64,000 bases of DNA, taken from contig CAYYOT010000004.1 of assembly GCA_964473255.1 (NCBI GenBank), forward strand, positions 68,897 to 132,896, given 5' to 3'. Both the position numbers and the translations under genes were made by a program. This DNA comes from an uncultured Myxococcales bacterium. Its GTDB lineage: Bacteria > Myxococcota > Kuafuiibacteriia > Kuafuiibacteriales > Kuafuiibacteriaceae. Shown here piece after piece: positions 15,903 through 59,003 of the stretch. Within the stretch, counting starts at the first letter, position 1, and each line of letters starts with the position of its first letter. The notes beneath the pieces were generated by a model. The model ran no database searches. It was not told the origin of the DNA and saw only the letters and a program-made list of their open reading frames with translations.

Positions 15903-15912
15903 GCTGCGGTCC

Positions 15913-21055: not shown

Positions 21056-21073
21056 CTCCTCGGTCGCTCGCGC

Positions 21074-21430
21074 CTACCCGGCTTCGTCTTCGGCGGCCAC
21101 CCGGCGCTCGTCAGCCTCCTGAGCGCGAAAGAAGTAGAACCCGGCCTTTTCGTAATAGAGCTCACCGAGTCGAAACTTGATATCGGGAATCTCGGCCTCG
21201 TCGGCGCCAAGTTCGAGGAGTCGCAGCAGACCCGCGATCTGGTCGTCCCGCTTGGCCGCAGCCTGAAGTTCGACGCCCTTTCGAAACCGATCGTACGACA
21301 GCGTCGGCGCCGAGGTGTCATCCTTGATCTTCTTGGGTCGGACTCGCGTCTTGCCCTCGGCGATCGCGCCCCCGAGCAGCAGGAGCGATACGGCCCAGGT
21401 TCCGGCCCGGCGGCGGCGGCGGCATCGCAT
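21074..21430 (-). pseudogene. N-terminal signal-peptide fragment of the GltD-like TPR protein, separated from the main body by an apparent in-frame stop (or a 1-nt frameshift)
   Basis: 118 aa: MRCRRRRRAGTWAVSLLLLGGAIAEG... ending ...YYEKAGFYFFRAQEADERRVAAEDEAG*. By track coordinates it is in the same frame as 18251..21055 and separated by only 6 codons. The (GGC)7 tract at 21400-21421 encodes the poly-Arg. Confidence 0.5.
21400..21421. repeat. (GGC)7 trinucleotide tract
   Basis: ccggcggcggcggcggcggcgg on the plus strand. It encodes the RRRRR run in the N-terminus of the GltD-like fragment (minus strand). Confidence 0.7.
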
Positions 21431-21431
21431 G

Positions 21432-36117: not shown

Positions 36118-36386
36118 CGCGACTCCTCTCGGCGGCCCAGGTTCCCCGCCATGCGGTTATCCCTTGGGTTGGGACCCAGGGCAAGCGGCACGTCTTCGTA
36201 CCGGCGATCTGCGCTCCGTCCGGCGGGAAGAAGCAGGGTCGGGAGAGGGTCGGCGCCTCTTCAGCGACATCTTCTTGTTGGTTCCTAAATCGGGGAGGAA
36301 GAGCCCTTCTGCGGACGCGAAGCGACGACCGAGTCGGCAGCGGAGCTCGCCTTGCAAGGCCTCACTTCCTTTGGAAAATTGCGTCC

Positions 36387-39865: not shown

Positions 39866-39918
39866 GACCGCCTTCCGGCCGGGTGGTCATCGGCGGAAGA
39901 TCCTCGGTACGGTCAGGC

Positions 39919-43917: not shown

Positions 43918-44230
43918 CGTGTCCCCCAGGGGAAAACCGTCGATGGTCCAGGACCTGCCACCCGACGAAAAGAATGGCCACCGCCGCTCGGAACACCTGG
44001 GTGTTGAGGGCCTCGGTCATCGAAGGGTACATCATGGGGACGGCCCACGAGACCCACGCTCCGGTCGCGAGCGCGAGGCTCGCCGCCAGCAGCGAAGACA
44101 AGCCAGACTGCCAACCTAGCCCCGACACCACGAATCCCGAGGCGACCACTCCGACGAATATCCCCCAGGGTCCAGGCAAGAGCGCCGCCGGGCACCCGGC
44201 GACGACGACAGCGACCACGGCCCGCCCCAT
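43910..44230 (-). CDS. Small polytopic membrane protein upstream of lnt
   Basis: An internal ATG at 44228-44230 gives MGRAVVAVVVAGCPAALLPGPWGIFVGVVASGFVVSGLGWQSGL.... It has 3-4 hydrophobic helices and overlaps the lnt start by 8 nt. Confidence 0.4.
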   Translation of the reverse strand: MGRAVVAVVVAGCPAALLPGPWGIFVGVVASGFVVSGLGWQSGLSSLLAASLALATGAWVSWAVPMMYPSMTEALNTQVFRAAVAILFVGWQVLDHRRFSPGGHGA

Positions 44231-44318
44231 GAGAGCGCCGTCATGTGGCGGGTGTCGCGCTTGTGTGTCAATCTTCCGTCTGTTAACCGGCCGTTTCCGG
44301 AGGACGTTCGAAGCCACC

Positions 44319-45725
44319 ATGCGCAAGTGCTCGATGTTCCTGCTTGTCGCGTGGACGTTGACGCCGACGACGCTCGCCGCCCAGGCCGACGCCCCGGATC
44401 CATCGCCCCGCGGCCTCACCCTGGACCAGCTCGTCGAGCTGGCCCTGGAGCGGAACCTGCTGGTCCAGGTGAAGGAGTCGGAGGTCGACCAAGCGCGTGC
44501 GCTCTACCGGACGGCAGCGTCCCTGGCCTACCCTCGGCTCGACGCCAACACGATCATCGGCGGCCCGACCGCTGAAGCCAAGACCGCCGTTCAGAACGAC
44601 ATCAACACCGTGACCCAATCATCGCTCGGCGGAGACCTCGATTTCGGACAGCTGGGCGTCACCATCCGGGGCGACGTCCAGATCGCGCAGCCACTGTACA
44701 CGTTCCGCAAGATCGCCAGCTCGAAGGACGCAACGAAGCACCTCATCAACGCCCGCGTGCAGGACGCGGAGGCAACGCGAGCCGACATCGTCCTCGACGT
44801 CCATCGCGCCTACTGGGCTCTGCAGCTCGTTCAGGCCTTCCTGAACACGATCGACGAGGGCACGGACACGTTGACCGGCGTCCTCGAGCAGATCGAGGAG
44901 CTGCTCGACGAGGACTCGGTGCAAGTCACGGAAAACGATCGACTCCGCCTCGTTCATGCCCTCGCTACCCTGCGCGTTCGCAAAGCGGAGGCGATCGGGG
45001 GGCGCGACCAGGCCAACCTCGCGCTGCGGATCCTGACCCGCTCCCCGCTGGATACACCGCTGATGGTGGAGCCTTTCGACCTCTACGACGCCATTCCCGA
45101 GACGACCCCGGAGGTCGAAACCACGGTGGAAGACGCCCGAGCCTCTCGGGCGGAGCTCCTGGCCCTGCGCCAGGTCATCGAAGCCCAGCAAGCCTTGGTC
45201 GAACTTCGGCGGGCAAACCTGTATCCCGACATCTTCTTTGGGGTGCGGATGAACTATGCGTACACGAGCAACGCGACCGAGCAGACCAATCCCTTCATCT
45301 ATGACCCGTTCAACGACTTCAACGTCGGTATGGGGATCGGTATTCGCTGGGAATTCGACCTGTTCACGAAGCTCGCGCGGATCGAGTTCGCCGAGTCCGT
45401 CCGCTCGACCCGCGAGATCCAGGAGGCCCTGGCCTCCGATGCCGTCGAGCTCGAGGTTCGGCAGATCCACACCCTCCTCGAGAACGGATTCGACCAGCTC
45501 GACGAACTCGACCGCGCCAACCGCGCCGCCCGGGCCTGGCTGACATCGACCGTCCTCGCGTACGACATCGGTACCGGCAACGCCCGCGAGCTGATCGATG
45601 CGTTCCTCGCCTGGGCCGCTTCCACCGCGCAGCTGGAGACGGTCCGGTACGACACCGTGGTTCGGCTGTCGGAGCTGGCCCGAGCCCGGGGACGTCTGGT
45701 CGCGCTCCGGGGAGCCCCTAGATGA
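44319..45725 (+). CDS. TolC-family outer-membrane efflux protein (OMF)
   Basis: The ATG at 44319 gives MRKCSMFLLVAWTLTPTTLAAQA (signal). The two-repeat OEP architecture is present (LTLDQLVELALERNLLVQ..., AEATRADIVLDVHRAYWALQ, ELLALRQVIEAQQALVELRRANLYPDI). Confidence 0.75.
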   Translation: MRKCSMFLLVAWTLTPTTLAAQADAPDPSPRGLTLDQLVELALERNLLVQVKESEVDQARALYRTAASLAYPRLDANTIIGGPTAEAKTAVQNDINTVTQSSLGGDLDFGQLGVTIRGDVQIAQPLYTFRKIASSKDATKHLINARVQDAEATRADIVLDVHRAYWALQLVQAFLNTIDEGTDTLTGVLEQIEELLDEDSVQVTENDRLRLVHALATLRVRKAEAIGGRDQANLALRILTRSPLDTPLMVEPFDLYDAIPETTPEVETTVEDARASRAELLALRQVIEAQQALVELRRANLYPDIFFGVRMNYAYTSNATEQTNPFIYDPFNDFNVGMGIGIRWEFDLFTKLARIEFAESVRSTREIQEALASDAVELEVRQIHTLLENGFDQLDELDRANRAARAWLTSTVLAYDIGTGNARELIDAFLAWAASTAQLETVRYDTVVRLSELARARGRLVALRGAPR

Positions 45726-45782
45726 GGTTGGCGGTTGAATACGCGCTTGCCGGGCTTCGTCACTTTGTTCGACCTCCAACCG

Positions 45783-46457
45783 ATGCGTCGATCCATCTTC
45801 AGCTCTGCCGTCCTCTGTCTCGCGGCCGCCCTTCCCTTCCCGGCCTGGGGCGCAGCCTCCACCGCCGCCTCGCCCAAGCCTTGGCTGGAGGAGAAGATCC
45901 GGGAAGGCCGGGCGCTGGCCGAGCGGCCCGTGAAGCCGGACTCACCAAGCGAGGACGCCTTCAAGAAAGACGCCGAGCGCCTGCTCGACGAGGTCCTCGA
46001 CTGGAACAAGCTGATCGAGCGAACCGTCCCCAAGTCTCAGTGGCGAAAGCTGTCCGATGCCGATCGAACGCGCTTCAAGAAGCTCCTGGAGAAGCTCATC
46101 CGCGCCTCGTATCGCTCGAAGCTCAAGCTAGCCGCCCAGGAAAAGCAGACGGGTAAGAAGCCACGCGAAGTCGAAATCGATTGGGTCGAAGAAAAGGTCG
46201 AAGATGATGAGGCCTATCTGGAAGCCAAGGTGCGAGCCGGTCGGGACCGGGTCGACTTGGGCTTCGACCTGATCCGCGAAGATGACCAGTGGAAGGTGTT
46301 CGACCTGGCCATGGATGGGGTCAAGACCACGCGCACGTACCGCAGCGAGTTCCGGAAGATCATCAGCGACGAGGGTTGGGACGGGCTGTTCCAACGCCTG
46401 GAAGAAAAGCTGGAGGACGTCGAAGCCGGCCGCGCAGAGTTCGGCCCTCGACGCTGA
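45783..46457 (+). CDS. MlaC/Ttg2D-family periplasmic phospholipid-binding protein
   Basis: The ATG at 45783 gives MRRSIFSSAVLCLAAALPFPAWGAAS (signal). The region EVLDWNKLIERTVPKSQWRKLSDADRTRFKKLLEKLIRASY... is characteristic of the MlaC (toluene tolerance) family. Confidence 0.6.
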   Translation: MRRSIFSSAVLCLAAALPFPAWGAASTAASPKPWLEEKIREGRALAERPVKPDSPSEDAFKKDAERLLDEVLDWNKLIERTVPKSQWRKLSDADRTRFKKLLEKLIRASYRSKLKLAAQEKQTGKKPREVEIDWVEEKVEDDEAYLEAKVRAGRDRVDLGFDLIREDDQWKVFDLAMDGVKTTRTYRSEFRKIISDEGWDGLFQRLEEKLEDVEAGRAEFGPRR

Positions 46458-46482: not shown

Positions 46483-48042
46483 CTAAGGGACGCCGCTGCC
46501 GGTTCGGCAGTACTGCTCCAATCGGGTCAGCGAACGCTCATGGAGCCCCGACCGCGGTACCGTCGTGTCCCGGACTTCCCGCCAGAGGTTACATGCCGCC
46601 CTCTCGCCTCGCTGCGCCGCGATCTCGGCGTCGTCGGCGAGGCGACGGGCGCGAATGCGAAGCCGTGCGATCCCGTCCGCCGCTTGGTCGTGCGAGGGGT
46701 CGATCTCGACCGCCGTTTTCCAGGACTGAAACGCGCTCTCGTAGCGTCCTTCATCGAACCGCTGCGCGCCCTGGTTGGACAGGGCATCCACGACCGCCAC
46801 CCCGAGCTCTCGAACGATGAAGGACGGAGAGCCATCGGGACTCAGCGGCGCCTCGAGCTGCGCGAGAACGTCCAGCAGAGCGGCGGCCCGGACGGGGTCG
46901 TTACTGACTTCCGTGCGAACGCGAGCCTGCATTCGTGGGATCTCGTCCAGGGTTGACGACAGCCTCAGCTCCCGCGCGAGCGGACTGTCGAGTTCCGTCG
47001 CCAGCCTCTGCGCTTCCGCCAGATCTCCGCGCCGATACGCGACCAGCGCGGGTACGGCCGGGTCTTCGTCGTACCGGTCATTGAACGACTGCGCGACGGG
47101 ATCGGGGACCGGAGCCGCCGTCCGAGCCCGGCTCCGCCGCCGCCGCGTCCGCGGTATCGGAGGAGGTCGCGTGGGCGCCGGCTCGTCGACTTGGCCAACG
47201 GCCGGGAATTCTGGAGCGGGCGCGGGCGATGGCGGCGCCAGCGACGACGATGGCTCCGGCCGGGGAGATTGCTCCGGATCGCCGTCCAGCCGCAGCTTGG
47301 AGCCGAGCGCTCCGGCGAACGCCAGCACGCCGATGGCTACGGCGACCGTCCCGAGGACCACCGGGCGCCGGGGGCTCCGCTCTTCGTGAGATTCGAGAAG
47401 TCGTTCGACCGGGAGCGACACGGCCAGCGGCACGCGGACCTCGAACTCGACCGAACCGAGCCTCAGCCGATCGAGGTCCCGGAGGTCGGCACGACGAACC
47501 CGAGCGTCGTTGACCCACAGGCCGTTCGCCGAGGCTCGGTCTTCGACCCGGAGTCGAGCCTCGGAGCCGGAGAAATCGATGTCGGCGTGGCGGCGCGAGA
47601 CCGAGTGGTCCTCCACGGTGACGTCGCAGTCATCGTCCCGACCGAGGGAGGCCCGCCCGGGGGAAACGGCGAAGGTCCGGCTCTCGACCGGCGGAGTCTG
47701 GCCCACGAGGAACACTCGAACATCAAAGGCCGCAGAAGCCGTAGCCTCTCGCACCTGCAGGCGATGAGCGGCAAAGCGAATGTCATCGGTCGCCTGAACC
47801 CGGCTGGGAGCGTCGATCCGCTGACCGTTGATCTCCACACCATGACTGCTCGCCAGATCGCTGAGGACGACGCTACCGTCCCGCACCTCGATTCTCAGGT
47901 GGCGACGACTCACCTTGGGGTGGTCGATTCGGATGTCGGCGCTGTCGTCGCGCCCGATCTCGACGGCCTCGCGGGCGAGCGGGCGCTCGACGCCGTCGGT
48001 CCCGGGCCCCTCGATGACGATGACGTAGCCGGGGTCGGTCAC
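46483..48042 (-). CDS. Double-FHA-domain bitopic membrane protein with a Pro-rich periplasmic/cytoplasmic linker and a C-terminal helical (TPR-like) domain
   Basis: FHA1 reads EIGRDDSADIRIDHPKVSRRHLRIEVRDGSVVLSDLASSHGVEING. FHA2 reads LGRDDDCDVTVEDHSVSRRHADIDFSGSEARLRVEDRASANGLWVND. There is one transmembrane helix (VVLGTVAVAIGVLAFAGALG). Confidence 0.7.
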   Translation of the reverse strand: MTDPGYVIVIEGPGTDGVERPLAREAVEIGRDDSADIRIDHPKVSRRHLRIEVRDGSVVLSDLASSHGVEINGQRIDAPSRVQATDDIRFAAHRLQVREATASAAFDVRVFLVGQTPPVESRTFAVSPGRASLGRDDDCDVTVEDHSVSRRHADIDFSGSEARLRVEDRASANGLWVNDARVRRADLRDLDRLRLGSVEFEVRVPLAVSLPVERLLESHEERSPRRPVVLGTVAVAIGVLAFAGALGSKLRLDGDPEQSPRPEPSSSLAPPSPAPAPEFPAVGQVDEPAPTRPPPIPRTRRRRSRARTAAPVPDPVAQSFNDRYDEDPAVPALVAYRRGDLAEAQRLATELDSPLARELRLSSTLDEIPRMQARVRTEVSNDPVRAAALLDVLAQLEAPLSPDGSPSFIVRELGVAVVDALSNQGAQRFDEGRYESAFQSWKTAVEIDPSHDQAADGIARLRIRARRLADDAEIAAQRGERAACNLWREVRDTTVPRSGLHERSLTRLEQYCRTGSGVP

Positions 48043-48053
48043 GATGAAGCGAC

Positions 48054-50069
48054 TCAGCCCTGGAAGATGCTCATGTTGACCTGCACCTCACCCCGGGCCG
48101 CCATGTCCTCGAGAAATCGAGGCACGTACCCGGTGGCGTGGAAGGTCCCGGTGACCAGGCCCTGGGAGTCGAGCCCCTCGGAGCGAAAGAGGAAGATGTC
48201 TTCCGTCCGAAGACGACCGTCCTCGAAGATGACTTCCGACACCCGGGTGATCCGGCGCGAGTTGTCCAAGAATCGGTCTTCTTGAATCACCACGGGGAAT
48301 GCAGCCGCAACGCGGGCCGCGCGGTCCTCGCCGACCGAGTCCTGAATGCGCGCGATGGCTTCCTCCGGATTCGAGGCCGACAGAGACACCACCGACCCCT
48401 GGAGGGGTCCGGCCACCGCGTCGAGCACCTCGGCGGCGGAATCGTCCAGGTTGGCAACGATCAGGCGGTCTCCCTGAAGGGCGAGGGCGAACTCGACCAA
48501 GGCTTCGAGCCCCCCGAACGGCTCCGGCTCCAGGGCCGTGGCGAGACGCTCCGGGTCGAGGTGAAGCTCGACGCCATTCTCGATGGTGATCAGCCGGTCT
48601 CCGACCGGCATGCTGGAGACCAGAGCGTTGAGCGTGGCCGTAGGCGAGACACCGGGCCCGACCGAAAGGAGGATGTTCCGCCGAAGACCCAAGCAGTCCT
48701 CGACGAACGAACGGATGCCAGAACTGATCGCGGAGTACTCGACGAGCTTGTCCAAGGTGAAGAGGTCGCGGGTCGTTTTCCGGATGGAAAGCGTGGGCCC
48801 GCGGAACGATACGGGAGGTCGAGCCGCTACGACGCGCGAGCCGTCACGCAGTCGCACGTCCAACGTCGGGCCAACGTCGAGGCCATCGATCCCCGCCAAC
48901 ACTGCAAACTGGCGGATCAGGTCATCGACGCGTTTGGCCGACGGGACGTCGGACCCGGCTTCTTCCAGGCGACCGTCGCGGTCGACGAGGATCTGCCCCT
49001 CTGGCGTGATCAGGACTTCGACAACGGCATCGTCGTTCACGAACTCGGCGACCAGCCCGAAGTCGGTCGCTAGCTTCGCCGCGCGCTCGCTGAGCGCCTG
49101 GACGTCTTCGCCGGCCGGGATGCGGCCCGCGCGCTGAAGACGGAACGCGTGGCGTCGGGCGGTCGTCTGGGCAGCGGTCTGCCGACCTGGGAGCTCCACC
49201 AACGGAACGTCGGCGAGACTCAACTCCTCGACCACGAAGCGGTGGAGACCCACCTCGATCTCGTCCCAGTCGAGCGGCTCGATACTCGACGCGACCGCGG
49301 CCATGGGCCCCTCCGATTCGGCGGAGGTCTGGACGTCGGCGGTGGACGGAGGTCCGGGGCGTGGCCGTGCTCGTGAACCGAGGGTTCGGCTGACGGGACG
49401 GGGCCGCGAGACCGAAGCGGGGCTGACGGCAGCAGGCGGCTCGGGGTCAGGGTCGGGCTCGAAGGCTGGCTCGGGGACGGGGTCGGGCTCGAGCATCGGC
49501 TCGGGAGCGAGTTCCGGCTCCCCAAGCGGTTCGGGAGCAAAGCTGGACGCGATGATCTCGTCGTGGTGCTTCGGGGGCTCCGGGGCGAAACCGTTGTCGC
49601 CGAGGTCCATCGGTTCGAGCTCCGGCTCGGCCTTCGGGGGGGGTGCCGCCGGCTCGGCCGGCTCGGGCGACAGACCGAAGTCCTGGTCGAAGTTATCGTC
49701 GATCAGGCCTGGGGCAGCTTTGGGCTCGTCCTGAGACTCGCCGCCAAACAGGTCGATCGCATCGTCCGGAAGGGGCGCCGCCTCGGTCTCGATCTGGACG
49801 GTGAAGTCGCCGATGTAGATCTTGTCGGTGCTCTTCACGACCTGAGGCGCGGTGATCTTCTTGCCGTTGACGTACGTGCCGTTCGTCGACTTCAGGTCCA
49901 CGATGACGTACTTGCCGTCCTTCAAGACGATCCGAGAATGGCGCTTGCTGATGTTGCCTTTGGGCAGAATGACGTCGTTGCCCTGGACGCGACCGATCGT
50001 GATCTCGTCCTTCTCGTAGGTTTCGTTGCGCGTTTCCCCGCCCTTCTCGTTGATCGTCAGCCGAAACAT
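48054..50069 (-). CDS. FHA domain fused to a degenerate CpaF/TadA-type (T2SS/T4SS E-family) secretion-ATPase domain (predicted pseudo-ATPase)
   Basis: The start is the ATG at 50067-50069 (MFRLTINEKGGETR...), an FHA domain containing NGTYVNG. A PEP/PEPxxEP acidic linker follows. The C-terminus has CpaF-like topology, but Walker A is GPGVSPTA (not GxxGSGKT), Walker B is DRLIVANLDD and the His-box is GPLQGSV. Confidence 0.6.
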   Translation of the reverse strand: MFRLTINEKGGETRNETYEKDEITIGRVQGNDVILPKGNISKRHSRIVLKDGKYVIVDLKSTNGTYVNGKKITAPQVVKSTDKIYIGDFTVQIETEAAPLPDDAIDLFGGESQDEPKAAPGLIDDNFDQDFGLSPEPAEPAAPPPKAEPELEPMDLGDNGFAPEPPKHHDEIIASSFAPEPLGEPELAPEPMLEPDPVPEPAFEPDPDPEPPAAVSPASVSRPRPVSRTLGSRARPRPGPPSTADVQTSAESEGPMAAVASSIEPLDWDEIEVGLHRFVVEELSLADVPLVELPGRQTAAQTTARRHAFRLQRAGRIPAGEDVQALSERAAKLATDFGLVAEFVNDDAVVEVLITPEGQILVDRDGRLEEAGSDVPSAKRVDDLIRQFAVLAGIDGLDVGPTLDVRLRDGSRVVAARPPVSFRGPTLSIRKTTRDLFTLDKLVEYSAISSGIRSFVEDCLGLRRNILLSVGPGVSPTATLNALVSSMPVGDRLITIENGVELHLDPERLATALEPEPFGGLEALVEFALALQGDRLIVANLDDSAAEVLDAVAGPLQGSVVSLSASNPEEAIARIQDSVGEDRAARVAAAFPVVIQEDRFLDNSRRITRVSEVIFEDGRLRTEDIFLFRSEGLDSQGLVTGTFHATGYVPRFLEDMAARGEVQVNMSIFQG

Positions 50070-50139
50070 GGCGCCTCGTCGGGAGCCTATCCCGATGGGA
50101 TCCTTGTAAGCCTGGCCAGGTATGGGCGCAAGATCCTGC

Positions 50140-53100
50140 TCAGTCGATGGACCGAACCGAGAGGCCATCCGACCGCAGGAGGACCTCCTGAATGCTTCGG
50201 GACCCCGGGAAGCTGAAGAGAAATCCGCGCCGAACGGGGACATAGGTGCCGGAATCGGGGACCGCGGCCAGCGGTCGACCGCCGTCCACGACGCCCACGA
50301 ACTGGATGACGGGCTCCGCCGAGTTCACCTGGATCTCGACGGCGTCGCACTGCCGCTGTCGGTAGGAGACGAAGCAGTTTCCGAACGTCGTGCAGTCCAG
50401 CGCACACTGGCCCGGGCAGTCGCTGCCGCTGCCCACGCACGACCGCCCGCTGCCGCACTCGGAGTTGCGCATGCACGCCTGGCCGATACCGTCGGGATTC
50501 GGCACCCCGTTCTCCAGCTCGAACGGGGTGTCCGTCCCGGCTTGCCCCGGTCGTGCGTCGCCAGCCCGAATGTCGCAGCGAAAGACGTCGGTGGGCTCCG
50601 CCGTGCGCCAGGTGAACGACAGCGGAAGCTCATCCGGAAAAACGATTTCCGACGGGTCCAGGACCGGGCTCCGAGCGACGACCCGCTGGACCGTGCCGTC
50701 GAGAGTCTCGACCGTGAGCACGGATTCGTCGTCGCGGGGATGGATCTCCAAGTGAAAGAGCAAGAGCTCCCGCTGCCCTCGAAAGGCGGTCGTGGCCTGA
50801 TCGCGAGCGGCAACGAGCGAGACGCAGGCCTCGAGGAGGCCGGCCGTGGCGTTGATATCGCCCGGAAGCAGGGACGGCGTGTCGCGGACGGTCGGAGGAA
50901 AGATGGGACACGCCTCGTTGACGCTGAGGTCGTCGTTCAAGCTGTCCTGTCGGAAACACGACCTGGACGTGTCGACGAATTCCGCCTCCTCGAACTGGTT
51001 CGGCACCTCCACGGTGAAGGAGTTCCGGTCGACCGCGACCAGCTCACCAGGTCCCCCGTCCGAACCCTCGAAGAAGCCGAGCTCCAGGCGTATCCGTTCG
51101 AGCTCTTCGGGGTCGTCGTCGTCCGGCGTTCGGCAGTTGAGGAAGAGCGACACCATGTCGCCCGGCCCCTCGGGCGATCGCGGGCGAACCTTGAAGTCCT
51201 CGAGAAGGTCGATCGTCGGCGGAATCTCGAAGACGATCTGCGTGGAGCCGGACGTGGTGCCCGGACCGACCGAGGCCACCGGAAGCTGCTGGGAGCGAGC
51301 CCGGAAGAGCGCTCCGCGGAAGCTGGCTCGGTAGCGGGTGTCCGCGGCCACGGGCTTGGCCCGGATCGCCGGGCAATTCTGACTTTGAACGAACGTGCCC
51401 TCGGTATCTGGACCGATGTAGCGATTGTCGACCCATCGCGGAATCGCCTCCACCGAAGTGTCGCCGGTGCGAACCGAGAAGTTCTCTCGGCACCGGGGAA
51501 CTGCGATGTCGACGGGTGGTTCGGGCGCGATCTGTCGGTTTCGCTCCTCGTTGAGCTGCTCGACGCGCTGGTCGCGGCGGCACAGTCCCACGACCTCGGT
51601 GCGACGGTCCTGGAGGACGACCGGTTCGGCCGGCTGACCCTCGACGTTACCGGTTTCGACCGTTTCGATGATCAGAGTGCGCTCGAACACCTCTTCGACC
51701 CGAGGCTCGGGTGCCGTTCGAAGGAGCAGCGACGTCGAGTTCACGTTGCCGGGCTCCCCTTCGGTGGTGGCCACGCGGAGAGCGTCGATCGGCCCGACCA
51801 CGAAGCTCACCGTTGCGTCGCGGTGGGCCAGAGCGAGAATGCCGGGCCCCGGGTCGCCCCCTTCCCCTGGCGTCCCGTCGTAGGCCTCCACCACCCCGCG
51901 CGTGAGACGACCACGCAAGAGGAGCGAGTCTTTGTCGGCCGCGATCGCCGCGGCGTCGGAGGGCGTCTCTCGGAGGACCAAAACGCCAGGCGGCTGACGG
52001 CCCCGCTCGTCGTCCTCCAGATAGGGTGAGTCAAAGACGGCGTCCACCGCTCGACAGGGCCCGTTCCGGCAGTCGAGGGCGTCGATGGCCGAACGATCGG
52101 AGCGCACCACGACCGCTCCCCCATCGCCGTACGGGAGCGCGCGAAAAGCCGAGCCTCCGATCGAAGCGAGTCCGACCAGCGAAAGCTCCGGAGGATCGTG
52201 CAGTCCGCTGACTCTGATCTGAGCGACCGTGGACGATCCGGCTGCGTCGACCACCAGATACGTGCCGTCCGAAGAAGCCGTCGACGACACCGTGCCGGAT
52301 AGCGTGGACGTCGCCGTAATCCGGGTGAGGTCGCGCGGACTGATGCCGATCTCCAGCGCAACGGGACTCGACTCCGCCCCGTCGGCGTAGCCGACGCCCA
52401 GCGTTTCGACCGCGTCGAACTCGAAGTCGCAGTCGGCGAACGCGAAGGAAGCGTTCGCGGTCGGCGTGAACACCGACCGTACGTCCATCACGACGAGAAG
52501 GCCGCCGTTCCCGGGGGGGCCGTTGCGCTCGAGCCCGAGGAGCAGGCGCGTATCGACGACGTCGGCGGATGCGGATGTCATGGCGGGCGGTTCTCCTCCG
52601 CCGGGACACCCCGACTCCGCGGCCCGCTCGCCGATCGCGACCGCGGCCACGAGCGAGAACGCCTCGAGGTCGACATCGCCCAGCGACGCGGCATCCAGCA
52701 GCGAAACGACGGGAAGACTCTGATCCGTGCCCGGAATCGGCGACAGCGGGTCGATGGCGAGGAAGTCATCGACGCCCGAGGTGATCACCACCGTCCCCAG
52801 TCGTCGCTGGATGGTGTCGGAGCTCACCCGGGCGGCCGGCGACTCACCGACCGTGGCCTGGGGAAGGTGCAAAGCATGAATCACCGACTGCCCGGGCGCG
52901 ATCGCGTATGGCCGGACGCTCGCCGTGTTGGGCGCGGCGGCGACCGCGACCGGATAGCCAGGCGTCGAAACGGTGATGTTGGACAGGACTACGGGTGCGG
53001 GCAAAAACGCCGGGAAGTTCGCGCCTTCGTACTGTAAGACGCGCACGCCCTCCGCTTCCGAATCCGCGACGAAGACATCGCTGCGCACGAGCGGGTTGCC

Positions 53101-53235
53101 CGAGGAGGTGGAATCCGGGGCTCGCGGGACGATGGTCAGGCCCGAAGGACGACGCAGGTTGGCCGCGGGGTCCGGGGGGGTGGATGGACAGGCGCACAGC
53201 GCTAGCGCCGTCAAAGCAAAGAAGCGTCGCATCAT
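50140..53235 (-). CDS. Very large hypothetical lipoprotein (1031 aa)
   Basis: Signal plus lipobox MMRRFFALTALALCACPS. There are no recognisable catalytic motifs. The protein is Cys-poor except for a C-terminal Cys cluster (CMRNSECGSGRSCVGSGSDCPGQCALDCTTFGNC). Its start overlaps the upstream stop (ATGA). Confidence 0.5.
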   Translation of the reverse strand: MMRRFFALTALALCACPSTPPDPAANLRRPSGLTIVPRAPDSTSSGNPLVRSDVFVADSEAEGVRVLQYEGANFPAFLPAPVVLSNITVSTPGYPVAVAAAPNTASVRPYAIAPGQSVIHALHLPQATVGESPAARVSSDTIQRRLGTVVITSGVDDFLAIDPLSPIPGTDQSLPVVSLLDAASLGDVDLEAFSLVAAVAIGERAAESGCPGGGEPPAMTSASADVVDTRLLLGLERNGPPGNGGLLVVMDVRSVFTPTANASFAFADCDFEFDAVETLGVGYADGAESSPVALEIGISPRDLTRITATSTLSGTVSSTASSDGTYLVVDAAGSSTVAQIRVSGLHDPPELSLVGLASIGGSAFRALPYGDGGAVVVRSDRSAIDALDCRNGPCRAVDAVFDSPYLEDDERGRQPPGVLVLRETPSDAAAIAADKDSLLLRGRLTRGVVEAYDGTPGEGGDPGPGILALAHRDATVSFVVGPIDALRVATTEGEPGNVNSTSLLLRTAPEPRVEEVFERTLIIETVETGNVEGQPAEPVVLQDRRTEVVGLCRRDQRVEQLNEERNRQIAPEPPVDIAVPRCRENFSVRTGDTSVEAIPRWVDNRYIGPDTEGTFVQSQNCPAIRAKPVAADTRYRASFRGALFRARSQQLPVASVGPGTTSGSTQIVFEIPPTIDLLEDFKVRPRSPEGPGDMVSLFLNCRTPDDDDPEELERIRLELGFFEGSDGGPGELVAVDRNSFTVEVPNQFEEAEFVDTSRSCFRQDSLNDDLSVNEACPIFPPTVRDTPSLLPGDINATAGLLEACVSLVAARDQATTAFRGQRELLLFHLEIHPRDDESVLTVETLDGTVQRVVARSPVLDPSEIVFPDELPLSFTWRTAEPTDVFRCDIRAGDARPGQAGTDTPFELENGVPNPDGIGQACMRNSECGSGRSCVGSGSDCPGQCALDCTTFGNCFVSYRQRQCDAVEIQVNSAEPVIQFVGVVDGGRPLAAVPDSGTYVPVRRGFLFSFPGSRSIQEVLLRSDGLSVRSID

Positions 53236-55079
53236 CGGTCGGGCCGGAAGAAGTTGTCGTACGATTCCCGCGTTCCCGCGGCGTTCAGGTCGCGCCCCAC
53301 CCGCGCGACGATGCGATGGCGAACCGGGTTGGGATCGGTCACGTCGAAGACCGCGATCGTCGAGTTCTCGAAGTTGGAAATGTACATCAGGCGCCGCCCG
53401 TCCCGCTCATCGAAGACCGCTTGCATGGGGGACGCGAGGAGAAACGTCACGATGGTGCGGTCGGTCGGCCCGCCGTCCGGGAGGTCGCGCTGCCCCCGAC
53501 CACGCAAGGTGAACAGGAGCGACGGGCGATCCTGGGTGACGTCCAACAAGAAGATCTGGTCGCCGCGCGCATCGAGTACGTAGACCCATCGACGGTTGGG
53601 CGGAGCGAATGGCGACAGGAGAACTCCGCCGAGCTCCTCGCCCAGCGCGAAGACGTTTCGAACCTCGAATTCTTCGGTCTCGGGGTCGTAGCTAGAAATC
53701 ACGAAGGCCGACGTGTTGCTGTCCACCTGCTGCCGAATCTGGATGGTCGTGTACAAGCGACCGGCAGTGCCGGCGGCTTCATCGGCCTCGACGTAGACCG
53801 ACCCTCGCGTCGTGAATCCGGCGGTGACTCCGCTGAAGTCGACGCCGACTTCGGGAGCGATGAACGTCTCGGTGCGGTTCGGCTCATCGGAGGGCTGGAA
53901 GGCCGGAGCGAGGATCAGCGTGTCCTCGGTGACACCGACCGCGTTGAGCTCCCCGCCCAGGTCACGATTCGTGGTGACGATGAACCCGGGACCCGGTTCC
54001 TCGCCGGCTTCGGAGCGGGCCAGGCTCTGCACCGGCACAACGGTGCTCGACGAGTCCAGACCTCGGATCGCGGCCCCGCAGAATTCGGCCTGATTCGGAT
54101 CGCTGTTGAGCCGGAACCCGGTCTCGAGGCGGCAGTCCCGAGGCAGCGGATTAGCTGGAGGCTCGATGCCCGGGAAGAGTTCGCTCGGGTGCTCGGGGCA
54201 CGACGTCTGGGGTCGGCTCGGGCCGGACAGCACGAGAAAGTCCGACGTCCGCAGCCCGCGAAATCGATCCTGGAGCTCACAAGCCTCGATGAAGCTGATC
54301 ACGCCGACGGTGAACGAGAAAGGGTCGACGGAGAGATGTGTGACCGCGAGGTTGCGAGTGACGTCTCCGTCGGTCAGCTGCGCCACCATGTACGGATCAC
54401 TTTTGACCAGGGGCAGAGTAAAGGTCTCCGAGCAATCCGTGGTCCCAACCCGATCCACGTCGTTGGACGACTCGCAGGGCCGACCAAAGCACTCGCTGGC
54501 GTCCGCCGCGAAACGGCAGGCCAACGGCGTCGACCCGATGACCTGGGGAGGCAGGGCCCTCGGGTCCATGCCAAAGTTCACGCCAACTCGGTCCGTCCGG
54601 ACTTCGAGCAGGGTCAGCGTCTGCTGAAAGCGGGTGGGCAGAGCCAGGAAGCTGCGGATCTCCGGGTCGTCATCGTCGGGATTTGGATCGAAGCGGAGGA
54701 CGGACAGGAGGCCGGCGGCGCCGTTTGTTCGGACCGCGCCGACGAATGGGGCAGGCCCCCCGTCGGTCGGGTCGAGATTCTCAAGGTAGGCGACGGTCGA
54801 TGAATCGGTCGGGATCATCCGCGAAAGCTCCGAGAGGAGGTAAGCGGTGACCGTGCCCGCGTTGTATCGCTGATCGAAGTTCGAGTTGGCGACGAGAAGG
54901 AGGTCGGAGCCTGAGGGCGCGGACGTCGTCGTAAAGGCCGGAACTCTCGCCAAACCCACCGGAAGGTAAGGGAGAGCAGCCGAGCGATTCGGGTCGTCCA
55001 GAGGATTGGCGCCGATCTCCGAGTCGACGCAGCCCGCGACAACGACGGCGAGGCCGAGCAGAGATTGAACGCGGATCAA
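53232..55079 (-). CDS. Large hypothetical lipoprotein (615 aa), beta-propeller-like
   Basis: Signal plus lipobox LLGLAVVVAGCVDS. The sequence is rich in beta-strands. Its start overlaps the ppdK stop (ATGA). Confidence 0.5.
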   Translation of the reverse strand: MIRVQSLLGLAVVVAGCVDSEIGANPLDDPNRSAALPYLPVGLARVPAFTTTSAPSGSDLLLVANSNFDQRYNAGTVTAYLLSELSRMIPTDSSTVAYLENLDPTDGGPAPFVGAVRTNGAAGLLSVLRFDPNPDDDDPEIRSFLALPTRFQQTLTLLEVRTDRVGVNFGMDPRALPPQVIGSTPLACRFAADASECFGRPCESSNDVDRVGTTDCSETFTLPLVKSDPYMVAQLTDGDVTRNLAVTHLSVDPFSFTVGVISFIEACELQDRFRGLRTSDFLVLSGPSRPQTSCPEHPSELFPGIEPPANPLPRDCRLETGFRLNSDPNQAEFCGAAIRGLDSSSTVVPVQSLARSEAGEEPGPGFIVTTNRDLGGELNAVGVTEDTLILAPAFQPSDEPNRTETFIAPEVGVDFSGVTAGFTTRGSVYVEADEAAGTAGRLYTTIQIRQQVDSNTSAFVISSYDPETEEFEVRNVFALGEELGGVLLSPFAPPNRRWVYVLDARGDQIFLLDVTQDRPSLLFTLRGRGQRDLPDGGPTDRTIVTFLLASPMQAVFDERDGRRLMYISNFENSTIAVFDVTDPNPVRHRIVARVGRDLNAAGTRESYDNFFRPDR

Positions 55080-57727
55080 CGGCCCTCCTGGATGGCGGCC
55101 TGGGCCGCCGCCAAGCGCACCCGTGGAACCTCGGCCACCGCGCAGGAGACATAGTCGAGTCCGAGACGCTGAGCCAAGCGGATCGAGCGCGGGTCGCCGG
55201 CGTGGCGGCCGGTCAAGCCGAGCATGAGGTCGGGCCGACGAGCCCGTCCTTCACGAACGGCTACGTCGATGAGCCCGCCAACGCCATCTTCGTCCAGGAC
55301 GGTGAACGGGTCGGCCGGCAGGAGGCCGCGATCCACGTACTGCGCAACCAGGCCTTGGCCATCGCCTCGCGCCATCCCGAAGACGAGCTGGGTGAGGTCG
55401 TTCGTCCCGAAGGAGAAAAAGTCGGCCGACTCGGCGAGGGCGCGGGCCCGGAGCGCGGCCCGTGGGACCTCGATCATGGTTCCGATGCGAAAGTCGATGC
55501 GCTCCCCGGCATCGAAGACGTGCTCGGCCACCTTGTCGAGGGTGCGCCTGAGAAACGAAAGCTCGCGGGCGCCCGATACCAGCGGAAGCATGATCTCGGG
55601 TCGGACCTGGACGCCCCGCCGGTGCGCTTCGATGGCAGCGGTCAGCACCGCTCGGGTCTGCATCTCGTACAGCTCCGGATGGGTCACCCCCAACCGGCTC
55701 CCTCGCAGGCCGAGCTCGGGGTTATCGTCGGCCAGCGCGGCCACCTTGGCACGGATCACGGAGGTCGGTCGGCCCAGCGTCTCGGCGACCCTCTCGAACT
55801 CTTCGTCGGAGTGGGGCCTCCACAGGGAAGGGTCGGGGTCGAGCAGGCGAATCACGACGGGCAGCCCAGGCATGGCTTCGAAAAGCTCGAGCAGGTCGGC
55901 CTGCTGAACCGGCTCGATTCGGCGCACCGCAGCTCGCCGGCCGACGTCGGTATCCGCGAGCAGGACGGACTGCAGCGATAGGCGCTTGTCGGGGGAGCGG
56001 AACATGGCCTCGGTCCGACAAAGCCCGATTCCTTCCGCTCCCAGTCGCCGAGCGAGCGCCGCGTCCTTGGCATCGTCGGCGTTGACGCGGACCTGCAGCG
56101 TCCGACGCTCGTCCGCCCAGCCCATGAGGCGATCGTACGCTTCGTTCACGGCGGGAAGGACCGTTTGCTTTTCGCCGAGCAGCACATCACCGGTGGCCCC
56201 CTCGATGGTGATCGACTGTCCGGTTTCGATACGGTGGTCCTTGACCAGCATGAAGCCGCGGGCGGGATCGATGCGCAGCGCCGAGCATCCCACGACGCAG
56301 GGCCGACCCAATCCTCTCGCCACCACTGCGGCGTGGCAGGTCATGCCGCCGCGTGCGGTGAGCACGCCGGCCGCAGCCTTCATGCCGGGCACGTCCTCGG
56401 CCGAGGTTTCGTTTCGCACCAGGATGACGGGCTGCTGTGAGCCGAGGCGAAGGGCATCCTTCACCGTAAACACGACGGCGCCGCTGGCGGCGCCGGGACT
56501 GGCCGGAAGTCCGTGGGCGACGACTTCGGCCTCGGAATGGGGGGCGATCCGAGGCTCGAGCAGGCTCTCCACTTCGGCCGTACCCACCCGCAGAAGAGCC
56601 GCATCTCGATCCACGAGGTCCTCGTCGACCATGTCGACCGCCAGCCGAAACGCCGAGGCCGGCGAACGCTGGGCCGTCTTGGCTTGAAGCAGCCACACCT
56701 GCCCCGACTCGATGGTGAACTCGAACTCGATCAGGTCGCGAAAGTGCATCTCGAGACGGTCGCGCATGGCGACGAGCTGGGAATAGGCCTCGGGGAGCGT
56801 ACCTTCGAGCGTTCTCCCCGAGCTGGAGCTGCTTTGGTTCAGCGGGGACGGGTCCCGGCTCCCCGAGACCACGTCCTGCCCCTGCGCCCCGAGCAGATAT
56901 TCGCCGAAGAGCCGGTGGGCGCCGGAATTCGGATCGCGCGTGAATGCGACGCCGCTCCCCGAGCGGTCATCGCGATTGCCGTAGACCATCGCCTGGATGA
57001 TGACGGCGGTGCCCAGCGCGGCGTCGATCTGATGCTGTCGCCGATAGGCTTTGGCCCGCGCATTGTTCCACGACCGAAGCACGCTCTCCACTGCGGTTTC
57101 GATCTGTTCGAGGGGCTCGACCGGCCAAGTCGCACCCTCCAAGAGCTTTCGGTAGCTTCCGACGAGCGCGCGGAGGTCCTCTTCCGACACCGTGCCCGAG
57201 CCGTGCCGTCGAACGCGTTCGGCTTCGTCGGCGAAAGCGGTTCTTCCCGTGTCCGGATCGACTGCCGCCCGTTCCACGATCTCACCCACTTGCCGAAGGA
57301 GTCGAGCCTGGCAGTCGAGGACGAGGCCGGGCTCACGTTCGGCCCAGGCGTCGGCGAGTGCATCCGTGAGTCCGACGTTCAGGATCGAGTCGAGCATTCC
57401 GGGCATCGAGCGGGGTGCCCCCGACCGAACCGCGACGAGGAGCGGACGCTCGGGATCCGCGAGTCGAAGGCCGGTCGCGCCCTCGAGCCAAACGAGTTCG
57501 TCGCGAAGGCGAGCCAGCAGCTCCGAGGGGAGGCGCTCGCCCGAAGCAAAGAAGGCCCGAGCGACTTCGACGGGCAACACGATCCCCGGCGGGACCCGAA
57601 GTCCGAGCCGGCAGGCCTCGAGGAGGAGGCTGGCCTTCGAGCCGACCGTCGCCGGCGGGAGGTCGGGTGCTTCACCCGACCGGAACCGATGGAACTCAAC
57701 CGGCGACAAGGGTCGGGCGGTTATCAC
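55076..57727 (-). CDS. ppdK: Pyruvate, phosphate dikinase
   Basis: 883 aa. The N-terminus is PPDK_N/ATP-grasp. The central phospho-His domain carries the PEP-utilising signature GGMTCHAAVVARGLGRPCVVG. The C-terminus is a PEP/pyruvate-binding TIM barrel (IGTMIEVPRAAL, FFSFGTNDLTQ). Confidence 0.85.
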   Translation of the reverse strand: MITARPLSPVEFHRFRSGEAPDLPPATVGSKASLLLEACRLGLRVPPGIVLPVEVARAFFASGERLPSELLARLRDELVWLEGATGLRLADPERPLLVAVRSGAPRSMPGMLDSILNVGLTDALADAWAEREPGLVLDCQARLLRQVGEIVERAAVDPDTGRTAFADEAERVRRHGSGTVSEEDLRALVGSYRKLLEGATWPVEPLEQIETAVESVLRSWNNARAKAYRRQHQIDAALGTAVIIQAMVYGNRDDRSGSGVAFTRDPNSGAHRLFGEYLLGAQGQDVVSGSRDPSPLNQSSSSSGRTLEGTLPEAYSQLVAMRDRLEMHFRDLIEFEFTIESGQVWLLQAKTAQRSPASAFRLAVDMVDEDLVDRDAALLRVGTAEVESLLEPRIAPHSEAEVVAHGLPASPGAASGAVVFTVKDALRLGSQQPVILVRNETSAEDVPGMKAAAGVLTARGGMTCHAAVVARGLGRPCVVGCSALRIDPARGFMLVKDHRIETGQSITIEGATGDVLLGEKQTVLPAVNEAYDRLMGWADERRTLQVRVNADDAKDAALARRLGAEGIGLCRTEAMFRSPDKRLSLQSVLLADTDVGRRAAVRRIEPVQQADLLELFEAMPGLPVVIRLLDPDPSLWRPHSDEEFERVAETLGRPTSVIRAKVAALADDNPELGLRGSRLGVTHPELYEMQTRAVLTAAIEAHRRGVQVRPEIMLPLVSGARELSFLRRTLDKVAEHVFDAGERIDFRIGTMIEVPRAALRARALAESADFFSFGTNDLTQLVFGMARGDGQGLVAQYVDRGLLPADPFTVLDEDGVGGLIDVAVREGRARRPDLMLGLTGRHAGDPRSIRLAQRLGLDYVSCAVAEVPRVRLAAAQAAIQEGR

Positions 57728-57812
57728 TGTCGCACCGCTTGAATCAATTCGCGCCTGCGGCCGCTGATCCCTGGCGGCTGGACGAAGGCATGGCCGTGCT
57801 TACGCCTGACCG

Positions 57813-58049
57813 GTGAAGAACCCGGGCGTCGCTGCGGTCCTCTCTTTCCTGATCCCCGGTCTGGGCCAGATCTACAACGGCACATTCCTTCGCGGGCTCT
57901 TCTGGCTGATCATCACCCCCGGCATGTGGGTGGGGACCGGGGGGTTTCTCGGGTGGGTTTGCCACTTCGCCTCTGCGTACACGGCCTACACCCGAGCGAA
58001 CCAGCTGAATGAGGGAGAACCCCAAAAATCCCTCTCCTCCGGCTCCTGA
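57813..58049 (+). CDS. TM2-domain-like small membrane protein
   Basis: 78 aa. The motif AAVLSFLIPGLGQIYNGTFLRGLFWLII resembles TM2/small two-helix membrane proteins. Confidence 0.45.
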   Translation: MKNPGVAAVLSFLIPGLGQIYNGTFLRGLFWLIITPGMWVGTGGFLGWVCHFASAYTAYTRANQLNEGEPQKSLSSGS

Positions 58050-58099
58050 CCGCGCTTCCGGTCCTGCGGTCTGGGGCTTTTGGGGTAGGCTCCGGCCTC

Positions 58100-58564
58100 G
58101 TGGAAGCGTTTCGCCGCGGTCCGATCGAACGGATCATTCGTCGTCTCGAGCGCCACCCCTCGGCGGTGGTCACCATGGCAAGCCTCTCGCTCCGCTTCTC
58201 GAAGGACTGGATGCGGGTTCGTGCAGGCATGATCGACGGAGCCGAGTTTCGGCGACGTGGCTTCACCCACGTGGGCTCGGTCTCCGGTGGTCTGGCGGGA
58301 GGTGCGGCCGGGGCTCTCGCCGGGACCGCGCTGGCTCCGGGCCTGGGAACCGTGCTGGGAGCCTTCGCCGGGTCGATCGTGGGCGATGAGGCAGGGACAC
58401 GCTTCGGGCGCGCCGCGGTGGAACACGCCGAGGTCCGACTACGTCGGCTTCCGCTCGGCGGTGGTCGGGGACCACGCCGAGCCCCCGACCGTTCGCCCGT
58501 GCGCGACGCAGCCGAGGAGTCGATCGTGCCGCCCGGATCGAGTCGACCCCGACGGAGACTCTGA
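58100..58564 (+). CDS. Glycine-zipper-containing small protein
   Basis: 154 aa. The central motif GGLAGGAAGALAGTALAPGLGTVLGAFAGSIVG is a glycine-zipper motif. Confidence 0.4.
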   Translation: MEAFRRGPIERIIRRLERHPSAVVTMASLSLRFSKDWMRVRAGMIDGAEFRRRGFTHVGSVSGGLAGGAAGALAGTALAPGLGTVLGAFAGSIVGDEAGTRFGRAAVEHAEVRLRRLPLGGGRGPRRAPDRSPVRDAAEESIVPPGSSRPRRRL

Positions 58565-58604
58565 GACGGTGGCACCTCGCCTTCCCCCGGACATCCTGGA
58601 GCGA

Positions 58605-59003
58605 ATGAAGCATCCGCTGGTTCTGGCGGCGGCGGTGAAGCTCGGCGTCACCCTCGGCCAGGAGGTGGGCCGAGTTCGGACTGGCGAAGTGTCCTGGGCT
58701 CACTTCAAGCGAACGCTCAGCCGACACGTCGGGGGCCTGACCGGAACCGCGACCGGCATGGCGCTGGGCGGTTGGGCCGGCAGCATCGTTCCCGGGGTCG
58801 GAACGATCATCGGCGCCTTCAGCGGCGGCCTGGCCGGCCAGATGCTCGGTGAACGACTGACCGAGGTCAGCGCCGACCGAGTGAGTGGCGGTGGTCTTTC
58901 CCGGATCGATCAGGATGATGACCCGGGCGACGCCGCCCGTATGTCGGAGGACGCCGCCCTGGGCGCGGGCGAAGAACCGGATCGCGACGCCTCGGCCGTC
59001 TGA
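58605..59003 (+). CDS. Glycine-zipper-containing small protein, paralog of the upstream gene
   Basis: The internal ATG at 58605 gives MKHPLVLAAAVKLGV.... The motif GGLTGTATGMALGGWAGSIVPGVGTIIGAFSGGLAGQMLG parallels the upstream protein. Confidence 0.4.
   Translation: MKHPLVLAAAVKLGVTLGQEVGRVRTGEVSWAHFKRTLSRHVGGLTGTATGMALGGWAGSIVPGVGTIIGAFSGGLAGQMLGERLTEVSADRVSGGGLSRIDQDDDPGDAARMSEDAALGAGEEPDRDASAV

Follow-up and report, generated by a model that had tools for sequence, protein, structure and literature searches.

Kil Cluster 1 and Its Counterpart in an Uncultured Myxococcales Bacterium

The Kil system of Myxococcus xanthus is a Tad-like apparatus for contact-dependent prey killing, and its genes are split over two distant clusters (Seef et al. 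2021, eLife, PMC8460266). The companion cluster 2 encodes the platform proteins KilG/H, the CpaB-like KilB, and pilins. Cluster 1 (MXAN_3102-3108) encodes a cytochrome-cd1-like propeller protein (MXAN_3102), a YWTD propeller protein (MXAN_3103), an FHA protein (MXAN_3104), the prepilin peptidase KilA, KilC (the secretin), the ATPase KilF, which is "fused to an N-terminal FHA domain", and KilD, which carries FHA and TPR domains (PMC8460266). Foci of KilD arise at prey contacts in the absence of a functional Tad core, and the authors proposed an upstream sensing cascade formed by the uncharacterized genes of the cluster (PMC8460266). Here we describe a related locus in a 64 kb stretch of DNA (~66% G+C) from an uncultured Myxococcales bacterium (GenBank assembly GCA_964473255.1, contig CAYYOT010000004.1, positions 68,897 to 132,896 of the forward strand), hereafter the window, whose own positions are used throughout. 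Behind a gene for pyruvate phosphate dikinase (PPDK), the window encodes two lipoproteins, a KilF-like FHA-ATPase, and a KilD-like protein with two FHA domains. As judged from its sequences, this four-gene core is an old, same-order paralog of Kil cluster 1, and its ATPase has lost every catalytic motif.

An original prediction, made from the sequence letters, had placed five minus-strand genes here, and all five are present at the positions that it gave as consecutive open reading frames (ORFs; 55076-57727, 53232-55079, 50140-53235, 48054-50243, and 46483-48042). It had reported an ATGA overlap at two junctions, which is correct for the two lipoprotein genes; the overlap of ppdK with the first lipoprotein gene is instead TTGA, and that lipoprotein starts at TTG. 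The start of the FHA-ATPase is most likely the ATG at 50069, giving a protein of 671 aa, because the FHA domain and all homologs begin there. With this start, the gene is separated from lipoprotein 2 by a 71-nt gap instead of overlapping it by 104 nt. The features are as follows, with the evidence for each in brackets.

55076-57727, minus strand: ppdK, pyruvate phosphate dikinase, first gene of the operon (TIGR01828, match to the PPDK of C. symbiosum, motif table)
53232-55079, minus strand: lipoprotein 1, 615 aa, MXAN_3102-like, TTG start (lipobox, orthologs at other loci, hhalign)
50140-53235, minus strand: lipoprotein 2, 1031 aa, placed like MXAN_3103 (lipobox, family alignment, hhalign)
48054-50069 (ORF to 50243), minus strand: FHA domain, disordered Pro/Glu-rich linker, and CpaF/KilF-like pseudo-ATPase, 671 aa (CpaF alignment, AlphaFold2, Foldseek)
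46483-48042, minus strand: KilD-like protein with two FHA domains, 519 aa (Pfam, family alignment, hhalign)
57728-58099, no strand: spacer that separates ppdK from the divergent glycine-zipper genes, presumed from its position to be the promoter region (gene coordinates)
58100-58564, plus strand: copy A of the tandem glycine-zipper pair, 154 aa (translation, family hidden Markov model)
58569-59003, plus strand: glycine-zipper protein copy B, 144 aa, GTG start as read from the sequence (Pfam, family hidden Markov model)

Within the intergenic region 57728-58099, no match to the sigma-70 consensus and no Rfam match was found, and a promoter and terminator scan was uninformative.

A CpaF Fold Without Catalytic Motifs

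The closest solved relative of the FHA-ATPase is CpaF of Caulobacter (8rkd, E-value 6.6e-32 by phmmer). CpaF/TadA, the bifunctional motor of the Tad pilus (8rjf, 8rkd, 9e24), is the best match in both sequence and structure and has the same two-domain architecture, but the window protein adds an N-terminal FHA domain (Pfam PF00498, E-value 2.6e-17) and a disordered linker of ~160 aa, and it lacks the Walker A, Asp box, Walker B, His box, and Arg-finger elements of the motor. In the HMMER alignment to 8rkd, the Walker A motif GGTGSGKT of CpaF reads VGPGVSPT in the window protein, with Pro in place of Lys, the Asp box ED reads EN, the Walker B motif VGE reads VAN (GE to AN), and the H...H of the His box reads L...S, so that both histidines are gone. 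The Arg-finger loop, which is ESRPPNxEG in KilF-like sequences, has shrunk to 4-5 residues (ALEP) in all members of the clade described below. The protein also matches the TadA, TrbB, and VirB11 models, all far under their cutoffs.

Homologs of the pseudo-ATPase were searched for among 5.8 billion proteins, and the best 120 matches were classified. The motif GxxGxGK[ST] is missing in 70 of the 120, which have in common the replacement GPGV[SGTN][PAG][TS]ATLN and which comprise every match down to an E-value of ~1e-105 plus two ranked lower. The same 70 proteins lack the Glu of Walker B, the Asp of the Asp box, and the His box and have a shortened Arg-finger loop, whereas GGTGSGKT, GE, and HxxxxxxxH are intact in the remaining 50, which are FHA-CpaF proteins. 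Each of the 70 stands for a separate cluster at 90% identity and has an intact ORF, and a neighbor-joining tree recovers the family as monophyletic; among the intact homologs of alignment A1, identity to the window protein is 39-55%. In an alignment of 27 sequences, residues P472, G473, A478, T479, and N481 of the replacement loop are invariant, as are the phospho-Thr-binding residues G26, R27, S41, H44, N63, and G64 of the FHA domain (motifs GR, SxxH, and NG). Because residues of both the replacement loop and the FHA domain are invariant and the ORFs are intact, the sequences indicate that the pseudo-ATPase is under purifying selection and not in decay.

An AlphaFold2 model built from the 27-sequence alignment has a predicted local distance difference test score (pLDDT) of ~90 in the FHA domain and >90 over residues 260-671; between them, the Pro/Glu-rich residues 98-259 are disordered. 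The top Foldseek matches of the model are the CpaF structures 8rjf, 9e24, and 8rkd, with E-values of ~1e-28 over ~412 aligned columns and a template modeling score (normalized to the target) of 0.67. By phmmer, the AlphaFold2 monomer model, and Foldseek, the two-domain CpaF fold is retained, with its N-terminal domain and RecA-like C-terminal domain. On these alignments and models, the ATPase domain is catalytically degenerate, with every catalytic motif replaced and the fold kept. A CpaF fold with lost P-loop, Walker B motif, and His box had been proposed from the letters, and the HMMER alignment, AlphaFold2, and Foldseek agree on it, with no intact GxxGxGKT/S P-loop in the aligned region. 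The further proposal that the FHA domain reads phospho-Thr is supported by the invariance of GR, SxxH, and NG in the family.

Homology to Kil Cluster 1

For comparison with the canonical cluster, two Myxococcaceae loci (L008 and L009) were used, both of which have the cluster 1 arrangement, a KilF with an intact P-loop, and a KilD with two FHA domains and TPR. The order in L008 (3102-like, 3103-like, FHA, secretin, KilF with intact P-loop, KilD) matches that in Supplementary file 1 of PMC8460266. The core in the window shares with it the succession of a 3102-like lipoprotein, a lipoprotein in the 3103 position, an FHA-CpaF protein, and a 2xFHA/TPR protein, and we regard it as a derivative of Kil cluster 1 because lipoprotein 1, the KilF-like protein, and the KilD-like protein are each homologous to their counterparts and stand in the same order. 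The FHA domain of the pseudo-ATPase (hereafter pseudo-KilF) is 64% identical and 84% similar to that of a Myxococcaceae KilF, compared to 31% identity between the ATPase domains.

Both lipoproteins have a lipobox by inspection (VVAG|C with the signal peptide MIRVQSLLGLAVVVAG|C in lipoprotein 1, and LCA|C with the signal peptide MMRRFFALTALALCA|C in lipoprotein 2), and as single sequences neither has a Pfam or NCBIfam match. Word-indexed homolog searches returned the two proteins themselves and one 35% match for lipoprotein 2, and orthologs were taken from the conserved loci. Orthologs of lipoprotein 1 are present at 13 of the 13 other loci, the Cys of the lipobox being nearly invariant, and the lipoprotein 1 family aligns to the 3102-like family with an hhalign probability of 99.65% (E-value 4e-25, 404 columns); an hmmsearch gives 5e-35 for the MXAN_3102-like ortholog of L008. 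It probably carries beta-propeller blades of the YVTN/lactonase type, as suggested by weak matches to 1l0q (E-value 1.6e-4) and to Pfam Lactonase; since the single-sequence AlphaFold2 model is poor (mean pLDDT 36), this assignment draws on the weak profile matches and on the homology to the MXAN_3102 family. Lipoprotein 2 occupies the second position, like MXAN_3103, and its family combines the nearly invariant lipobox Cys with a C-terminal module containing many invariant cysteines, a family-specific feature that sets it apart from cluster 1. Its relatives number 77 among 1.84 billion representatives, about the size of the pseudo-ATPase clade, and its family profile matches nothing meaningful in PDB or Pfam. 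The two proteins had been called orphans; each in fact has a family of its own, lipoprotein 1 is homologous to the MXAN_3102-type lipoprotein, and lipoprotein 2 stands in the same order with a weak resemblance to MXAN_3103, so that neither counts as an orphan.

The protein encoded at 46483-48042 has two FHA domains (Pfam, 7e-34) and TPR, a Pro-rich linker, and one 20-residue hydrophobic segment after RR; its C-terminal domain is helical/TPR-like and contains a pair of conserved Cys residues. Its first FHA domain reads SHG, not SNG. The family aligns to the KilD family with an hhalign probability of 100% (E-value 7e-68, 650 columns), and the region behind the membrane segment, which is free of FHA domains, still links the two families by reciprocal matches of 5e-30 to 4e-12. 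The likeness to Fha1/TagH of the T6SS (type VI secretion system), which acts with PpkA, and to the cytoplasmic FHA-like domain of SctD/YscD of the type III secretion system (T3SS), both cases of FHA-dependent assembly or activation of envelope machines, is the cytoplasmic placement of FHA in a bitopic protein of the inner membrane. The NCBIfam models TagH and SctD and Pfam Yop-YscD_cpl give domain-level matches far under the family cutoffs, which reflect the FHA fold, and the module is devoid of T6SS or T3SS genes; membership in the TagH, SctD, or GltG families was accordingly rejected.

The KilD-like protein of L004 (11980-13464, 494 aa) is short like that of the window, and the nine other aligned orthologs are 731-822 aa long; the helical segment missing from the short proteins is DFDFDxFV...DPIN...ERKMR. 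In the KilD ortholog of L008 (11849-14074, from a Myxococcaceae metagenome-assembled genome), a hydrophobic stretch (~LLAGVGVGALVLVGVIA) aligns with the transmembrane helix of the module proteins. From this alignment, KilD itself, cytoplasmic according to the literature, may be a bitopic membrane protein.

The module differs from Kil cluster 1 in several respects. Its ATPase is dead, and by its motifs it does not qualify as the motor for pilus polymerization. The secretin of L008 as a query matched no module locus, no separate copy of an MXAN_3104-like gene was seen in the module loci, and no prepilin peptidase appears in the precomputed Pfam tables of L081-L090, no sequence search having been made for the peptidase. 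None of the window ORFs scanned has a Pfam match to a secretin, platform, pilin, or peptidase, which agrees with the earlier claim that pilin, secretin, and platform genes are missing from the window. The module adds ppdK in front and the glycine-zipper genes upstream. Neither of two papers on Kil (PMC8460266 and PMC12075869) mentions ATPase-dead paralogs or a link to PPDK, and no such mention was found in the searchable literature. The Kil-derived dead-motor module therefore appears undescribed in that literature, and it is a variant of the described Kil system.

Both the true cluster and the pseudo-module lie directly behind a housekeeping gene, glyS in L008 and ppdK in the module. In L009, L037, and L051, an ORF of ~700 aa occupies the glyS position of canonical Kil cluster 1.

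FHA-fused, P-loop-degenerate CpaF paralogs are common in Myxococcota, and annotation calls them "pilus assembly ATPase CpaF/TadA". The other FHA-CpaF families (in Polyangiales, Kofleriaceae, Sandaracinaceae, Nannocystaceae, and Bradymonadia) share the FHA plus CpaF-like architecture with the module, many have degenerate P-loops, and a KilD-like gene often follows; however, their replacement motifs are not those of the module, 3102/3103-like lipoproteins were not detected with them, and both ppdK and the glycine-zipper genes are missing. Degenerate Walker A motifs among the paralogs of L011-L066 include GVAGSGRS, GAMGSGVS, and GTRDAGTS, and examples of degenerate loops are found in L032 (Sorangium sp. 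So ce176), L039 (Polyangium sp.), L013, L015, L016, and L028. Behind several of the L011-L066 paralogs lies a KilD-like gene. In public annotation, these degenerate paralogs stand as CpaF/TadA ATPases.

Conservation of the Gene Neighborhood

The window was compared with 13 other loci encoding clade members, three from species-representative genomes (L001, L003, and L004) and the others from metagenome or NCBI contigs (L081-L090). Lipoprotein 1, lipoprotein 2, the FHA-pseudo-ATPase, and the 2xFHA protein occur together and in the same order in 14 of the 14 loci, with the partner genes at 24-55% identity across loci; the first lipoprotein ranges from 450 to 615 aa and the second from 690 to 1031 aa. 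The outer flanks vary among the loci (CheA/CheW, DEAD helicase, sulfite reductase, and MlaC/OEP). The neighborhood check proposed with the original prediction thus turned out in its favor: at every locus the FHA genes are accompanied by both lipoprotein genes, despite the differing flanks. The module has so far been seen only in uncultured, metagenome-derived lineages of Myxococcota/"Deltaproteobacteria", which is a further difference from cluster 1. The scan of species-representative genomes used FHA-domain peptides and returned mostly other FHA proteins, with at least three module loci among the matches listed, and it is unfit for judging co-occurrence with true Kil systems.

Upstream of the module, 12 of the 14 loci have divergent genes for a family of small glycine-zipper proteins (117-154 aa), often in two tandem copies. 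The family's hidden Markov model has matches in the window as well as at 11 of the 13 other module loci, including L004 and L090, which are devoid of ppdK, and finds no member in the canonical Kil loci and other FHA-ATPase loci examined. In the window, copy A (frame 58013-58561) matches the family model with an E-value of 1.1e-36, and copy B matches Pfam Gly-zipper_YMGG and Gly-zipper_Omp with E-values of ~2e-5. The two loci free of glycine-zipper genes encode homologous proteins of ~200 aa (L084:4658-5278 and L089:2784-3380, phmmer E-value ~1e-13), located downstream of sulfite reductase genes and immediately ahead of the module.

Genes for the apolipoprotein N-acyltransferase Lnt, a TolC-like OEP, and MlaC lie convergent beside the module in 5 of the 14 loci (window 42403-46457, L081, L087, L089, and L090). 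Three of the five add a Poly_export protein and a protein of 624-693 aa with a Yop-YscD_cpl (FHA-like) match. This adjacency may reflect lineage synteny or a link to outer-membrane lipid or lipoprotein biogenesis.

The Linked Pyruvate Phosphate Dikinase

The PPDK of the window, a full-length enzyme with three domains, scores 933 bits against TIGR01828 (cutoff 843) and 723 bits against the PPDK of C. symbiosum, with the catalytic His and Cys kept. According to the motif table, it retains the catalytic His (GGMTCHAAVVARG), R561, R617, E745, ND, and Cys, along with the motifs CRTE, IRLLD, TMIE, TNDLTQ, and SC; its changes are GGKG to GSKA and QTRxGKRT to QAKTAQRS, the latter replacing Arg337 of the C. 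symbiosum enzyme by Lys. It is 31-49% identical to the other module-linked PPDKs. The gene ppdK stands ahead of the block in 11 of the 14 loci, with a 4-nt overlap with the lipoprotein gene in at least seven, and 8 of the 11 linked PPDKs carry canonical motifs. In the homolog of L088 (3386-6016), the ATP-grasp motifs are degenerate. In the homolog of L085 (4124-6517), the ATP-grasp motifs are gone, as are TNDLTQ and the catalytic Cys, and the central GGLTSHAAVVAR motif alone is left, yet the ORF is still intact as a 797-aa first gene. The phospho-carrier motif G-G-[ML]-T-[SC]-H is the sole PPDK element kept in every module-linked copy.

It is quite conceivable, though not our first choice, that ppdK adjoins the module by genomic hitch-hiking with no functional tie, much as canonical Kil cluster 1 lies behind glyS. 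The gene is absent from three loci, eight of the linked PPDKs look fully canonical, and the canonical cluster of L008 sits after glyS and before polA, all as would be expected of an incidental neighbor. Against this, ppdK is kept in 11 loci in spite of differing outer flanks, the start and stop codons overlap by 4 nt in at least seven, the degenerate PPDK-like ORFs of L085 and L088 stay intact first genes, and the window PPDK is itself divergent. Metabolic co-expression, hitch-hiking, and physical partnership are all candidate explanations of the linkage. The original prediction had called the arrangement with ppdK undescribed; no publication on a ppdK/Kil-like arrangement was found in the searchable literature, so this part stands, but the core derives from a described system. 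The recurrent translational coupling to a PPDK that has itself become a pseudo-enzyme in some lineages is a puzzling connection of an envelope machine with central carbon metabolism.

In plants and bacteria, the PPDK regulatory protein presumably phosphorylates the Thr of this central PPDK motif. It is conceivable, though doubtful, that PPDK is a structural or regulatory subunit of a stand-alone contact- or energy-sensing complex in which the FHA domains of pseudo-KilF and/or the KilD-like protein would read the phospho-Thr of PPDK. If true, a Kil-derived envelope complex gating a predatory or secretion machine would thereby be coupled to the cellular phosphoenolpyruvate/ATP status.

Possible Function of the Module

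We favor, with a probability of about 0.6, the reading that the locus encodes a Kil-derived, non-motor, phospho-Thr-dependent envelope scaffold or sensor. Pseudo-KilF would be unable to power pilus extension. In the cytoplasm, it would act as a scaffold that needs no nucleotide and is held to the KilD-like protein of the inner membrane through FHA/phospho-Thr contacts, with its own FHA domain and the two of the KilD-like protein docking on phospho-Thr sites. Because its FHA domain is 64% identical to that of KilF, compared to 31% in the ATPase domain, pseudo-KilF probably reads the same kind of phospho-mark as true KilF. The KilD-like protein is predicted to span the inner membrane, since positive residues lie inside and its C-terminal domain has a conserved Cys pair, and its periplasmic domain would probably contact lipoproteins 1 and 2. 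Together, pseudo-KilF, the KilD-like protein, and the lipoproteins would form an envelope-spanning sensing or recruiting complex. If a genuine Kil/Tad motor is encoded at another place in the genome, the complex may recruit it, gate it, or compete with it; PPDK would be expressed along with the module and might partner it physically or in regulation. A complex free of Tad parts is plausible as a contact-sensing or recruiting unit because KilD foci form at prey contacts without a functional Tad core (PMC8460266).

Such a module would bear on the question of how Kil senses prey contact, with uncharacterized genes of the cluster suspected to be the sensor (PMC8460266). It represents a natural dissection in which the two lipoproteins and KilD are kept, the motor chemistry is deleted, and the FHA reader is preserved, and the retained set points to components that form one functional unit. 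The pseudo-enzyme also offers a test of scaffold or decoy roles among secretion ATPases.

Several observations weigh against this reading. The altered loop may keep residual nucleotide binding. The relation of lipoprotein 2 to the 3103-like family is weak (hhalign probability 86.7%, E-value 4e-6, 86 N-terminal columns). The KilD-like protein of the window (519 aa) lacks ~250 aa found in most orthologs, and the complex may differ in this genome given the shortened protein. A true Kil/Tad system was found in neither the window nor any of the 22-kb module loci, and no kinase linked to the module was identified. Finally, PPDK is not obligatory, being absent in L004, L084, and L090, and the linkage of ppdK could be inherited synteny.

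With respect to kinases, the window encodes one of the Hanks type (31377-33191, plus strand); the other kinase-like ORF (within 6347-8122, minus strand) belongs to the fructosamine-kinase/APH family, and the two Ser/Thr kinases claimed originally are thus reduced to one. As this lone Hanks kinase is ~13 kb away with no visible link to the module, the argument for regulation by a kinase comes down to the FHA domains. The earlier picture of a kinase-regulated envelope assembly module is retained for the dead CpaF fold, the FHA residues, and the co-conservation of the genes, and is not supported for the kinase link and the orphan status of the lipoproteins.

The main competing explanation, which we consider unlikely although it accounts for part of the data, is an autonomous envelope module with no link to a pilus, one that retained just the accessory parts of Kil and acts, independently of any Tad machine, in outer-membrane or lipoprotein homeostasis or in signaling. 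No Tad core gene occurs in the window or in any module locus, the glycine-zipper membrane proteins are specific to the module, and MlaC, the TolC-like OEP, and Lnt adjoin it in the window and four further loci, as this explanation would have it. These neighbors, however, are confined to 5 of the 14 loci and may reflect lineage synteny, and since the Kil genes of M. xanthus lie in two distant clusters (PMC8460266), the absence of core genes nearby says little. Moreover, the FHA domain is nearly as conserved with true KilF as inside the family, which argues for a shared phospho-ligand.

It is very unlikely that pseudo-KilF is still an NTPase whose GPGVxxTAT loop binds nucleotide in a non-canonical manner. 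The conserved replacement loop, with its Gly and Thr residues kept, and the intact overall CpaF fold would allow for it, but the Walker A Lys, Walker B Glu, Asp-box Asp, and both His-box histidines are jointly lost and the Arg-finger loop is deleted throughout the clade, and it is this concerted loss of five motifs that makes residual activity improbable. Least credible of all is a non-functional relic, a duplicated kil cluster undergoing pseudogenization, since the absence of any catalytic motif and of the secretin and peptidase is set against the intact ORFs and conserved replacement loop of 70 separate clusters (at 90% identity), partner genes co-conserved in all 14 loci at 24-55% identity, and an ATPase-domain pLDDT >90, and a decaying pseudogene cluster was ruled out by this breadth of conservation.

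Other FHA-Linked and Repeat-Containing Genes in the Window

Further FHA proteins are encoded elsewhere in the window. A separate minus-strand cluster at 13557-23318 consists of a 781-aa FHA protein and, behind it, a VTT-domain protein and three large proteins with TPR (440, 934, and 628 aa); it may represent a further envelope system linked to FHA. The plus strand at 26845-28209 encodes a sigma-54 enhancer-binding protein whose N-terminal domain is FHA-like (Yop-YscD_cpl), near a glycosyltransferase and the Hanks kinase. A 1163-aa protein (36096-39587, plus strand) contains seven DUF7151 repeats (E-value 6e-94) and He_PIG/PKD-like Ig domains, and it is followed by a Kelch-repeat protein at 39883-41226.

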